A stretch of DNA of 64,000 nucleotides. Source: Promethearchaeota archaeon (GTDB lineage: Archaea; Asgardarchaeota; Lokiarchaeia; Sigyniarchaeales; SOKP01). The DNA lies in NCBI GenBank assembly GCA_048938855.1, contig JBHLLT010000012.1:22297-86296 (forward strand), read 5' to 3'. The translations under genes were made by a program, and so were the position numbers. The notes below the pieces were generated by a model. That model was not told the origin of the DNA and searched no databases. It saw nothing but the letters and a program-made list of their open reading frames with translations. Positions 41,024 to 58,011 of the stretch are shown here, piece after piece. How positions within the stretch are numbered: the stretch's first letter is position 1; every line of letters starts with the position of its first letter.

Positions 41024-42262
41024 TTAATTATCTTCATCCTTGATTTTTGATGGTATTTCTTTAATCTGGATGGCTAATTCCTGTCCTAATTTTTCACCTT
41101 TATCAAGTTGATCTCCTGTAGGATGACCATTGAATGTTAAGGGTTCTTGGATATCCCAATGCATAGCTTCAGATAAATTATTAAAATCTTTTAAAGCTCC
41201 ACCACTCCAACCATAAGAACCAAAATATAATGCCTTCTTATACCATATATGCTTTTTCTTTAAAAGTTCCATTAGATATTTCATAGGGGGAAACATGCTA
41301 TATTCGTAGGTTGGGCATCCTATAACCAAACCAGCAGATTTGTATGCATCTGCAAGAATATAAGACGCATCTTCATTTGGGACTCGATGAACATTTATTG
41401 GTACACCTGTAGAAGCTATTCCTTTTAAAACTGCGTTTAACATAGCTTCTGTATTTCCATACATACTACCCCAAATCACGCAAATTTCAGGTTCAGCATA
41501 ATCTTTATTATAGTTAGCATATCGAAGATACTTGTTAATAACTACTTTTGGTTTTCTCCAGATAAGACCATGAGAGGGGGCAATCATCTTAATATCTAGT
41601 GAAGATAATGAATCAATAGCCTTTGAAACATTGGGAGAAAACATTGCAATAATATTTGCGTAATATCTTAACATTTCTTTTTCCCAATATGGTTTATTTA
41701 CATCTGAAGTCTCATCGTCAAAAATGCTACCCTGATGAACTCCAAATGCTCCAAATGCATCACCAGAAAATAAGATTTTTGAATCTGGTTCATAAGATAC
41801 CATAGTTTCTGGCCAATGAACATGTGGGATCTCAGTAAAAATAAGTTTCTTATTTTGTCCTAAATCAATTTCATCCCCTGTTTTAACCACTTTAATGTTA
41901 TCTTCTATCCCATAGAATGCATTAACTAATTTCGATCCTTTCTCAGTAGTTACTATTTGGGATTTTGGTGCAAGGGACCTTATAATATAAGTAAAACCTG
42001 TATGATCTGGTTCAAGGTGATTAAGCACGATATAATCGACATCTTTTAATGATAGTGAGAGTGATTTTAGATTTTCTAATAAACTCATTGCGGCACCACC
42101 CCACTCTCTAACAAGTTCAATTAGAGCAATTTTATCTCCTATGATCACATATGCATTAAGAGCAACACCATTAGGTATCGGCCAGATGCCTTCAAATAAA
42201 TCTTCTGTATGTACATTTGCTCCAATCCAATATATATTTTCAGCTAATTTTGTTGCTTGGAT
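41024..42262 (-). CDS. fprA: Flavodiiron protein (FprA-type O2/NO reductase); probable ATC start at 42262
   Basis: NHLEPDH, HWPETM, FSGDAFG, APSHG, flavodoxin SMYGNT and FGSYGWSG; conserved N-terminus IQATKLAENIYWIG..FEGIWPIPNG lies upstream of the track start. Confidence 0.9.
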   Translation of the reverse strand: MQATKLAENIYWIGANVHTEDLFEGIWPIPNGVALNAYVIIGDKIALIELVREWGGAAMSLLENLKSLSLSLKDVDYIVLNHLEPDHTGFTYIIRSLAPKSQIVTTEKGSKLVNAFYGIEDNIKVVKTGDEIDLGQNKKLIFTEIPHVHWPETMVSYEPDSKILFSGDAFGAFGVHQGSIFDDETSDVNKPYWEKEMLRYYANIIAMFSPNVSKAIDSLSSLDIKMIAPSHGLIWRKPKVVINKYLRYANYNKDYAEPEICVIWGSMYGNTEAMLNAVLKGIASTGVPINVHRVPNEDASYILADAYKSAGLVIGCPTYEYSMFPPMKYLMELLKKKHIWYKKALYFGSYGWSGGALKDFNNLSEAMHWDIQEPLTFNGHPTGDQLDKGEKLGQELAIQIKEIPSKIKDEDN

Positions 42263-42485
42263 GATTTTATCACTTTATTTTTCTTTATTATTTTAGAAAT
42301 AAATATATAACAATTTATGGACTCCTTTTTTTTTTATTATTTGGTTTATAAAAATTAAGTAAAAAAAAATTAAGAAGAACTCTTCCTTATTAAGTGATTG
42401 CATATTTCTTGAGTGAAGATATCCTCATCTAATTCAAAGTCTTTTAATATATTAATTAAAAATTTAAGGAAAAAAAAGATGTGAA

Positions 42486-42839
42486 TTAGTCGATTGTAAC
42501 ATCTACAGTGTGCAATTCGGCTTCTTCATATGGTACATTTATTTTAAGTAAACCTTCTTTATAAATCGATTTTGCTTTTTCAGGGTCAACTGGACAACAA
42601 AACTGATAGGTACCTGAATAGATAAGACTTTCTAATTCACCATTTATTTTAAAATAGTCTTTATTCATTTTCAATTCAATTTTTTCTTTATCTACTCCTG
42701 GTAAATAAACCTCTATGTCAAATCCTGTACCTTCTTTATTGGTGGATGCGCAAATTTCTGGAAATACTCTAGGTTTGGATGGTTTATCTTCTTTTTCCTC
42801 AATCTCAGTTTCTCTCTTAATTTCTTTTAGTTCACTCAA
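42486..42839 (-). CDS. Small heat shock protein (Hsp20/alpha-crystallin)
   Basis: EVYLPGVDKEKIEL, VDPEKAKSIYKEGLLKINVP; GGAGGTGA SD before TTG at 42839. Confidence 0.9.
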   Translation of the reverse strand: MSELKEIKRETEIEEKEDKPSKPRVFPEICASTNKEGTGFDIEVYLPGVDKEKIELKMNKDYFKINGELESLIYSGTYQFCCPVDPEKAKSIYKEGLLKINVPYEEAELHTVDVTID

Positions 42840-42875
42840 AAATTTCACCTCCAAAATTATTCATATTAAACAGAT

Positions 42876-42891
42876 TTGATTACAAAATCAA
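42876..42891. promoter_or_regulatory. Perfect inverted repeat TTGATT-ACAA-AATCAA upstream of hsp20
   Basis: Directly visible palindrome about 40 nt upstream of the start. Confidence 0.4.
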
Positions 42892-56064: not shown

Positions 56065-56374
56065 TTCAAGTTTATAAAGTAATAATAAAATAATAGAACT
56101 TAAAGAAGCAAATTTAAAAGAAAGAAAGAAAATTAACTTTTTTTAAGTTTTCTCATTAGGATGATTACTATGCTAGTGATAACATATCCAGATCTATTTT
56201 TTGAGTAGAATTTTTTAATTTTATTAGTTATATTTGAGAATAATAAATACTCTATAATATATTTGCTTACTTTTCTAATTGTTCGAACTTCTTATGGAGT
56301 TATGTAGCAGAAACTAATTAATGAATTAATTAGTTACTTAAATTAACAAAAAGCATAAAAAAATGGAATAAATC

Positions 56375-57148
56375 ATGCAAGAACTAGAAATGGAGAATAT
56401 GTATCAGAAAGCCTATATTCGAGTGAAATGTTTTAAGGGTTTATTTACGCACGATATTTCAAATTTATTTCATACAATTAGTAATTCTCTAGAGTTATGT
56501 CAAATGCTACTTAAAGACAGAATCGAAACAGAAGAAATTTTAGAATATTTTAAATTAATTGAAGAACAGATTAATCGAGGAAAAAAATTAGTTAAAAATA
56601 TGAGAAATCTTTCTGAATTAGAAGAATCTGAAATGCCTTTAAAACCTATCAACCTTTTTGAAATTTTGAGAAATATGGTTCAGTTTGTTGGAGCAAATTT
56701 CTCAAAAAGAATAGTAAACATTGAAATAGACCCTGAAACTGAAGAAATTTATGTACTCGCTAATGAATTATTACTCGATGTTTTTGAGAATATTATGATG
56801 AATGCAATTATATACAATAGAAATGAGATTATCCAAATTGAAGTCTCAATATCAGAAATAACAGAAATAGGGAGAAAATTCGTGAAATTAGAATTTAAAG
56901 ATAATGGTATTGGTATAGATGATATAAGAAAATACGAAATACTACAGGAAAAACATGAAAAAAGTAAGAATTCTAAGGGTATGGGACTCGGATTATCACT
57001 CGCCGCCAAATTAGTTAACTTATATGAAGGACATATGTGGATTGAAGATCGCATAAAGGGAGACTATACTCATGGGAGCAATTTTGTGATTTTAATTCCA
57101 AAAACAATAAAACCAGAGCAATCTTTTTATGCTTTTCGAGAAGACTAA
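56375..57148 (+). CDS. Sensor-less histidine kinase (HisKA plus HATPase_c)
   Basis: H-box FTHDISN, N-box FENIMMNA, G1 DNGIGI, G2 GMGLGL. Confidence 0.9.
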   Translation: MQELEMENMYQKAYIRVKCFKGLFTHDISNLFHTISNSLELCQMLLKDRIETEEILEYFKLIEEQINRGKKLVKNMRNLSELEESEMPLKPINLFEILRNMVQFVGANFSKRIVNIEIDPETEEIYVLANELLLDVFENIMMNAIIYNRNEIIQIEVSISEITEIGRKFVKLEFKDNGIGIDDIRKYEILQEKHEKSKNSKGMGLGLSLAAKLVNLYEGHMWIEDRIKGDYTHGSNFVILIPKTIKPEQSFYAFRED

Positions 57149-57183
57149 GAAAAATTTTAAAAAAAAAAAATGGGTGAAAAATT

Positions 57184-58011
57184 ATTAGCCAAATTAATAA
57201 AAAAGTAAAGAAGGATATTAAATGGTACTCTTATGTGGATCCATATCTTGACAACAAATTAAAAGAATTCATGGAAGAATTTAAAATTAAAAATCAAGCT
57301 AAGCTCATACGGAACATTATCGATAACAATATAGACTATATTCATGCCATTGTTCAGAAGAAACCATTAAAGGGACCTAATCATTATGATGAAGAATACT
57401 TCAGTGATTATATAAAAAAATCTATTGATTCTTATGAAATAGACAATGGATTTCATGAAGAATTAAAGCGGAGACTCTCTCCTCTTAAACTCGCAATTTT
57501 AATGCTAGAAAATCATCTTAAAGATCCTGACACAATGGTAGAAACGATCGACAATATTTATAAAGCTCTTAAGGATTTAGAAGATTCAGTAAAACAACAT
57601 TTTGAAAAACCGAAATTAATTCGATTCGTACAAAAAATTGATATTTTATATATAGAAGATAGTGAATTAGAACGAAGGACTATAGATACTTATTTTAAAA
57701 CACAAGGAAAGAATATTAAAACAGTAGAAACAGCAGAAGAGGGATTATATTTATTGAAAACATTGACTCCTAAAGTGATTTTGGTTGATATCAATTTAAA
57801 AACAAGCAATATTAATGGAGATGAATTTTGTAGAATTTTAAAATCTCATGGGGAGTATAGTTCTATTCCCGTAATTTTAATATCAGCTGTTGTAGCGAAA
57901 ACAAGAAAACAAGAAATCTTAAATAAAACAGAAGCAGATGAGATTATATTTAAACCTATAGATAATTTATCCGATTTACATATCTTGTTTAAATTTCTAA
58001 AACAATACTAA
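57184..58011 (+). CDS. Response regulator with an N-terminal ribbon-helix-helix-like domain and C-terminal receiver; probable ATT start
   Basis: REC: ILYIEDS, ILVDINL, IPVILISA, FKP; N-terminal KWYSYVD..LDNKL..F...NQAKLIR; GGTGA SD 6 nt before ATT at 57184. Confidence 0.78.
   Translation: MSQINKKVKKDIKWYSYVDPYLDNKLKEFMEEFKIKNQAKLIRNIIDNNIDYIHAIVQKKPLKGPNHYDEEYFSDYIKKSIDSYEIDNGFHEELKRRLSPLKLAILMLENHLKDPDTMVETIDNIYKALKDLEDSVKQHFEKPKLIRFVQKIDILYIEDSELERRTIDTYFKTQGKNIKTVETAEEGLYLLKTLTPKVILVDINLKTSNINGDEFCRILKSHGEYSSIPVILISAVVAKTRKQEILNKTEADEIIFKPIDNLSDLHILFKFLKQY

Follow-up and report, generated by a model that had tools for sequence, protein, structure and literature searches.

The window examined here, a stretch of 64,000 nucleotides from an Asgard archaeon (positions 22297-86296 of contig C54 in the metagenome-assembled genome (MAG) G000), contains between positions 41024 and 58011 four genes that offer no ATG, GTG or TTG (collectively NTG) from the bounding in-frame stop to essential protein sequence. 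As the preliminary description had proposed, with coordinates that proved exact, an ATT or ATC (with ATA, collectively ATH) lies at all four sites past a motif resembling a Shine-Dalgarno (SD) sequence; the distance is 6-10 nt. The genes and the signals preceding them are the following.

41024..42262, minus strand: FprA-like flavodiiron-type gene (ODP/metallo-beta-lactamase plus flavodoxin), 412 codons from ATC 42262-42260
42277-42275, minus strand: in-frame TAA of the FprA-like gene, with the SD-like GTGAT at 42273-42269, 7 nt (from GTGA) before ATC 42262
46742..47083, plus strand: pterin-4a-carbinolamine dehydratase (PCD), 113 codons from ATT 46742
46731-46735, plus strand: SD GGTGA of PCD, which includes the in-frame stop TGA, 6 nt to ATT 46742
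47151..48089, minus strand: TFB paralogue, 312 codons from ATT 48089
48113-48111, minus strand: in-frame TAA of the TFB paralogue, which with the SD-like GAGGG at 48103-48099 precedes ATT 48089
57184..58011, plus strand: RHH plus receiver-domain regulator (RHH-REC), 275 codons from ATT 57184
57173-57177, plus strand: SD GGTGA of RHH-REC, which includes the in-frame TGA, 6 nt to ATT 57184

In each gene, the stretch ahead of the first NTG contains elements that the fold needs: in TFB the Zn ribbon, in PCD the CxxC region, in the FprA-like protein the opening strands of the metallo-beta-lactamase domain and in RHH-REC the RHH strand. The TFB paralogue, one of 12 in G000, carries two TFIIB repeats (Pfam 3.4e-30), and its first NTG (ATG 47801) lies 96 codons downstream, beyond the Zn ribbon and the B-reader/linker; the ribbon motif CCxxPC…CxNCG sits upstream of that ATG, and the archaeal TFB architecture of an N-terminal Zn ribbon followed by two cyclin-like TFIIB repeats is complete only if the gene is read from the ATT. 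The Pterin_4a domain of PCD (3.6e-30) covers residues 20-111 of the stop-to-stop frame, the first NTG being ATG 46910, 56 codons downstream and beyond the CxxC region. The RHH-REC protein (Response_reg, 2.8e-15) has its first NTG, GTG 57235, 17 codons downstream, and a start there loses the RHH beta-strand KWYSYV. The FprA-like protein matches ODP (1.6e-21), Lactamase_B and Flavodoxin_1; on the minus strand its start region reads stop TAA, AGT GAT AAA ATC ATC (42262-42260) CAA, the second ATC being the start, and the first NTG (GTG 42148) falls 38 codons downstream, within the metallo-beta-lactamase domain.

We propose, with a probability of about 0.85, that PCD, TFB and RHH-REC start at a conserved ATT through near-cognate initiation positioned by the SD, and that AUU, AUA and AUC initiation behind an SD would be a property of this Asgard lineage. 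Among the approximately 60 open reading frames (ORFs) of the window that reach 100 codons or more, the four genes are the clearest cases; four in about 60 is close to the genome-wide rate given below, and the notion of a regional property, four cases in 15 kb, was discarded as a post-hoc selection.

The evidence that carries this proposal is the conservation of the start codon in orthologous loci, which were taken from 40 relatives, including 24 members of the genus itself, every frame being traced back to its stop. In PCD the ATT is found in 4/4 genus orthologues, reading ATT CC(G/A) (G/A)AT TT(A/G), and three of these four copies have no upstream NTG at all; the aligned codon is ATG in seven genomes from outside the genus. 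One of the PCD orthologues, L006 (G014:C105), shows a one-base change in the spacer that leaves the upstream frame open, so that a GTG within the SD (GAG GTG AAA ATT ATT) or an upstream TTG would be the called start; ATH starts can therefore hide behind spurious N-terminal extensions as well as behind truncations. The TFB paralogue has ATT in 6/6 species, within (A/C)A(A/T) ATT TAT behind AGGG(G); a TAA two codons before the ATT pins the start in the orthologue L022, and the next group of TFB paralogues reads ATG AGC TAT. In RHH-REC, a stop, two variable codons and ATT recur in 7/7 species, with GGTGA-N6-ATT throughout, and three of the seven (L064, L065 and L066) have no NTG ahead of the conserved KWYSYVD. 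A sister clade of this regulator has ATG at the aligned codon, and a third clade has GGTG-N7-ATT or ATC.

The same signal appears across the genome of G000 (3.95 Mb in 93 contigs, GC about 30%), which was surveyed through 3320 non-overlapping ORFs of at least 100 codons. An archaeal 16S is present, with the tail GGATCACCTCCT, and an SD run of at least 5 at an aligned spacing of 13-19 precedes 16.5% of clean ATG starts against 3% of internal codons. When the comparison was limited to codons that lie at most 8 codons from the upstream stop and are followed by no NTG for at least 20 codons, such runs preceded ATT in 31/144, ATC in 7/32 and ATA in 16/104 cases, and the base-permuted controls TAT, TTA and AAT in 1/61, 3/86 and 4/104. 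With the minimum distance to an NTG set at 10 codons, such a run was found for codons close to the stop in 82/790 cases for ATH and 146/3767 for other codons. Furthermore, the ATH spacing peaks sharply at k=16, that is GGTGA-N6, with 38 of the 82 hits; this is also the modal SD spacing of ATG genes, and PCD and RHH-REC match GGTGA-N6-ATT exactly. At k=16, 38 ATH hits stand against 18 non-ATH hits (odds ratio (OR) 10.5, p 5e-17), the non-ATH hits accumulating one codon to either side, at k=13 and k=19, in frame with k=16. The genome-wide survey thus ties ATH starts to an SD at fixed spacing beyond chance. A raw count of GGTGA-Nx-codon over the genome was uninformative, even ATG not being enriched at N6, because most GGTGA sites are intragenic (GGT GAx).

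The strict criteria are satisfied by 69 ORFs (ATT 41, ATA 21 and ATC 7, approximately the usage of Ile codons), about 2% of the total and a lower bound, since a case enters the count only if it has both an SD and a long gap free of NTG. Many of them open with N-termini typical of their family, such as USP, VOC, TetR, SDR, receiver and small GTPase proteins. Candidates with a gap of 30 codons or more were sampled in the order of the list, the first 20 being taken and the window contig and the gene of the initiation factor aIF1 left out. In this sample, a Pfam domain begins upstream of the first NTG in 11-13 of 20; the domain starts include residue 6 for adh_short, 8 for Rpp14/Pop5, 12 for Phosphodiest, 19 for BcrAD_BadFG, 28 for L7Ae and 33 for Aminotran_1_2. 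Five or six of the remaining candidates were uninformative, two were without a hit and 0/20 contradicted the ATH start. The earlier suggestion that such starts serve the control of stress and regulatory genes finds no support as a restriction, the 69 including SDRs, GTPases, an aminotransferase, an L7Ae-family protein and RNase P Pop5. A pair of paralogues of about 180 aa on contigs C62 and C74 (strand-relative positions 99154 and 11077, minus strand) has an identical SD and spacer, TGAGGTATCAAC, after which one copy continues with ATT and its partner with ATC; ATT and ATC thus appear interchangeable as starts.

No single argument for working ATT initiation in this genome is stronger than the one drawn from the initiation machinery itself, in which aIF1, a universal archaeal initiation factor, can be made only from an ATT. 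One SUI1/aIF1 gene was found in G000 (C31:6347-6670); its frame reads TAA AAG AGT ATT AAA GAC…, its first NTG is at codon 86 and the protein read from the ATT aligns with M. jannaschii aIF1 (4MO0) from residue 3 of the latter. ATT is the start in 22/22 genomes of the genus with sequence, in the context AAAGGTTGTGA-TAA-xxx-AGY/AAC-ATT; outside the genus, the codon is ATA in two g5 genomes and GTG or TTG in other genera, and ATG occurs in none. Among the nine conserved Ile columns of aIF1 only the start column is codon-invariant, the other eight mixing ATA (75), ATT (74) and ATC (27). The gene of the proofreading factor therefore itself has a weak start. The initiator tRNA (C31:27626-27734, minus strand, with an intron), whose inspection had been recommended together with that of aIF1, is canonical: A1:U72, three G:C pairs (GGG/CCC stem) and a CAU anticodon. 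It lies about 21 kb from aIF1 on the same 37 kb contig. The relaxed aIF1/aIF2 fidelity suggested in the preliminary description is a conjecture, to which these sequences contribute the conserved ATT of aIF1 and an ordinary initiator tRNA.

In the mechanism that we propose, the genes would be real and translated, the start triplet being AUU for PCD, TFB and RHH-REC and AUC for the FprA-like gene. The 3' end of the 16S rRNA (…GGAUCACCUCCU) would pair with the SD (GGUGA or GAGG), and the duplex would set the triplet lying about 6 nt past GGUGA into the P site, where the ordinary initiator Met-tRNA (CAU) would pair with it by two of three bases; the protein would therefore begin with Met, and the output from AUH starts would be below that of AUG. 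Furthermore, the AUU of aIF1 suggests, by analogy, a feedback of the kind known for infC-AUU or for the poor start context of eIF1: a low level of aIF1 would raise near-cognate initiation, which would restore the aIF1 level. We put forward tentatively, as a possibility that we rate below even odds, that the start-codon stringency of the lineage is set by this feedback of aIF1 from its own invariant AUU and that a relaxed set-point tunes dozens to hundreds of genes through SD-N6-AUH, among which would be the TFB paralogue of the stress island described below and response regulators.

Several other explanations have to be weighed. The one that survives best, and that we nevertheless consider improbable, accepts ATH as the real start and replaces the mechanism, by a dedicated second initiator, by initiation with Ile or by reinitiation after the TGA within the SD. 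Indeed, GGTGA supplies the in-frame stop through its own TGA in PCD and RHH-REC, and the tRNA set is incomplete (13-24 genes by aragorn, which was confronted with introns, and only 30 by Rfam, the initiator having been located by a motif search). The sole initiator-like tRNA found is nevertheless the canonical CAU one, no second initiator with an altered anticodon being found in this incompletely recovered set, and the sharp SD spacing of ATH codons is that of ATG genes. Reinitiation is further opposed by the surroundings of the two TGA codons: the TGA upstream of PCD terminates no ORF and lies in a region that is AT-rich and full of stops, and the histidine kinase gene upstream of RHH-REC ends 36 nt before the ATT. 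The tRNA search also returned one tRNA-SeC (aragorn, anticodon TCA; the likeliest Rfam match by sequence is C49:41349-41436), which hints at the use of selenocysteine in G000.

Very improbable, in our view, is that the ATH codons are sequencing or assembly errors or mark a recent pseudogenisation, the true or ancestral codon being ATG. The MAG, with a completeness of 97%, has a contamination of 7%, and the FprA-like gene has a canonical start at the aligned codon in every orthologue examined, which fits one G-to-C change. Against it, 4-7 MAGs that different studies assembled independently (isolates DZ1M, DZ2M, DZ2S and YT1) share the ATT at the aligned codon, the frames are intact and under purifying selection, and ATT recurs in the aIF1 of 22/22 genomes of the genus. 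For PCD, TFB and RHH-REC, where the ATT is kept across independent MAGs, the explanation is refuted, and the earlier argument that four such errors are unlikely holds for these three; it does not extend to the FprA-like gene, whose ATC is private. Five contigs of G000 (C11, C19, C29, C30 and C37), about 3 kb each and of 65-67% GC against the 30% of the genome, are probably binning contaminants.

An equally slight chance is left to a start at the first downstream ATG or GTG, as publicly annotated, the upstream stretch being an untranslated leader. The public calls (NCBI and Logan) do give TFB 216 aa from ATG 47801 and PCD 57 aa from ATG 46910, and RHH-REC has GTG 57235. Such starts would cost TFB its Zn ribbon and B-reader, PCD half of the Pterin_4a domain and the FprA-like protein 38 metallo-beta-lactamase residues, and in L064, L065 and L066 no NTG precedes the conserved RHH strand. 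Moreover, the upstream stretches are free of stops across species whose synonymous sites are near saturation (pS 0.45-0.7), and the ratio of nonsynonymous to synonymous substitution (dN/dS) from the ATH codon to the first NTG is 0.19-0.24 in PCD, 0.13-0.28 in TFB (95 N-terminal codons, leaving out L022, whose tblastn match ran through the upstream TAA), 0.04-0.22 in FprA (N-terminal 37 codons) and 0-0.13 in RHH-REC, the remainder of each gene giving 0.08-0.19. These low values mean that the upstream stretches encode protein. Neither relaxed selection nor a broken frame was found for PCD, TFB and RHH-REC, and the FprA frame is intact though its change is private. The public calls bear out the earlier prediction that standard gene callers truncate such genes; in the 90% cluster to which the TFB call belongs, members have calls of 298 aa that begin at a chance TTG, a codon that is TTA in G000.

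A programmed -1 frameshift of the dnaX type, conceivable for RHH-REC only, where a short ATG ORF at 57170-57208 (MGEKLLAKLIKK*) overlaps the start and looks like a -1 frameshift site, with an in-frame heptamer A AAA AAG (57198-57204) and then TAA, has next to no likelihood and was rejected, the upstream ATG not being conserved in orthologues (it is missing in the closest, L062/L176) and GGTGA-N6-ATT being invariant in the 7 species.

Some observations weigh against initiation at ATH or restrict its reach. The ATC of the FprA-like gene is private to G000, both 79%-identical genus orthologues having ATG, as do all others examined at the aligned codon except that of G032, which has GTG; the ATC might have arisen by a recent mutation that inactivated the gene, an error of the consensus being the less likely alternative. 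It is a single-species change from ATG to ATC, plausible as a start, and we give it less weight than the other three. In RHH-REC, the in-frame GTG 17 codons downstream may be used too. Finally, the use of SD is modest, as the 16.5% of ATG starts indicate, so that the SD-based ATH counts are a lower bound only and the total rate is a rough estimate: at least 2% of the genes of the genus, plausibly 3-6%, would start at ATH, the latter range being derived from the excess of long NTG-free heads (heads of d at least 40 in 2.4% of the ORFs of G000 against 1.1% in G038).

Beyond G000, another genome of the genus (G023, 400 kb sampled) gives SD hits at 9/61 ATH against 10/340 other codons (p 7e-4). 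The signal is weaker but detectable in a sister family: G038 (genus g9, family f2, 800 kb sampled) gives 10/137 against 12/847 (p 3e-4), with a TsaA-like and a radical-SAM-like protein as convincing single cases. G032 (genus g2, 800 kb sampled) shows a weak signal (p 0.08; p 0.04 at k=16), which suggests a rate similar to or below that of g9, and no clear ATH signal was seen in the 400 kb sampled from G033 (family f4, GC 54%). ATH starts are strongest in this genus and probably occur elsewhere in the order at lower frequency.

The region 41024-58011 resembles an oxidative-stress island around the four ATH-start genes. Its members also include an aldo-keto reductase and a histidine kinase, the latter adjoining RHH-REC, together with the following genes.

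42486-42854: Hsp20, island member
43077-43481: desulfoferrodoxin, island member
48450-49649: AIF-like oxidoreductase (Pyr_redox_2 plus AIF_C), island member
49990-50481: ferritin, island member

The FprA-like gene, the ATT-started TFB paralogue, PCD and RHH-REC are neighbours too in G008 (C64), G024 (C10), G014 (C105) and G015 (C92), and this shared neighbourhood suggests that the TFB paralogue is dedicated to the island.

Near-cognate starts have precedents, each differing from the present case. In bacteria, AUU and AUA starts are known in E. coli infC and pcnB and, behind extended SDs, in S. aureus infC (AUA), cvfC1 (AUU), ccpN and citZ (AUA) (PMC13009471; PMC4705826). Like those described here, the bacterial AUH starts have a strong SD at a defined aligned spacing and are conserved among related species; moreover, the gene of the proofreading factor IF3 uses a near-cognate start, as that of aIF1 does here. 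The closest analogue established by experiment is that of S. aureus, where the AUU and AUA starts behind extended SDs yield about 10% of the AUG output (PMC13009471), a value measured in that species. The bacterial cases number a handful of genes per genome under IF3 proofreading, whereas dozens to more than 100 would be concerned here, in an archaeon with eukaryote-type aIF1, aIF1A and aIF2.

Eukaryotic eIF1 autoregulates through its poor start context, and the levels of eIF1 and eIF5 control near-cognate initiation at CUG, GUG and AUU (reviewed in PMC6412873). Like aIF1 here, this homologous factor has a suboptimal start of its own, by which it could limit its own level and set the global stringency. 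In eukaryotes, however, the start is chosen by scanning and Kozak context, whereas an SD is used here, where the feedback is deduced from the nucleotide record.

Among archaea, ribosome profiling of Haloferax volcanii assigned near-cognate codons to about 30% of the putative alternative initiation sites (PMC7261190), evidence that archaeal ribosomes can initiate at such codons. The authors nevertheless discounted these Haloferax sites, regarding them as potential false positives; none of this concerns conserved main starts of annotated genes, and initiation in that organism is largely leaderless. SD motifs are described as rare in Lokiarchaea by reviews (PMC12993045, PMC7531240). In full-text searches of the literature, no study was found that treats ATH starts of Asgard archaea systematically; there was one single-gene remark, a "rare ATT start codon" proposed in the Methods for the tubulin AtubA of a Kariarchaeaceae (Heimdall-group) MAG (PMC13394414). 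As in our genes, an Asgard protein had been deposited N-terminally truncated, and an upstream ATT restores the first beta-strand at a plausible distance from a ribosome-binding site. That remark concerns one gene of another Asgard class, without conservation or genome-wide analysis, both of which are brought here.

In conclusion, our observations bear on the way in which Asgard genomes are read, since the search for eukaryote-like proteins in them relies on gene calls restricted to ATG, GTG and TTG. Should ATH be the start of 2-6% of genes, numerous database proteins would be without their N-termini: the losses would comprise the Zn ribbon of TFB and half of PCD in the window, P-loops and Rossmann motifs elsewhere, and small genes may be missed entirely. 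If true, these would be the first widespread and conserved near-cognate main starts in an archaeon with a eukaryote-type set of initiation factors. Could the control of start-codon fidelity have arrived at the same solution in IF3 and in eIF1? The dependence of aIF1 on an AUU makes the evolution of this fidelity directly testable, including the apparent convergence of the autoregulation of IF3 and eIF1.

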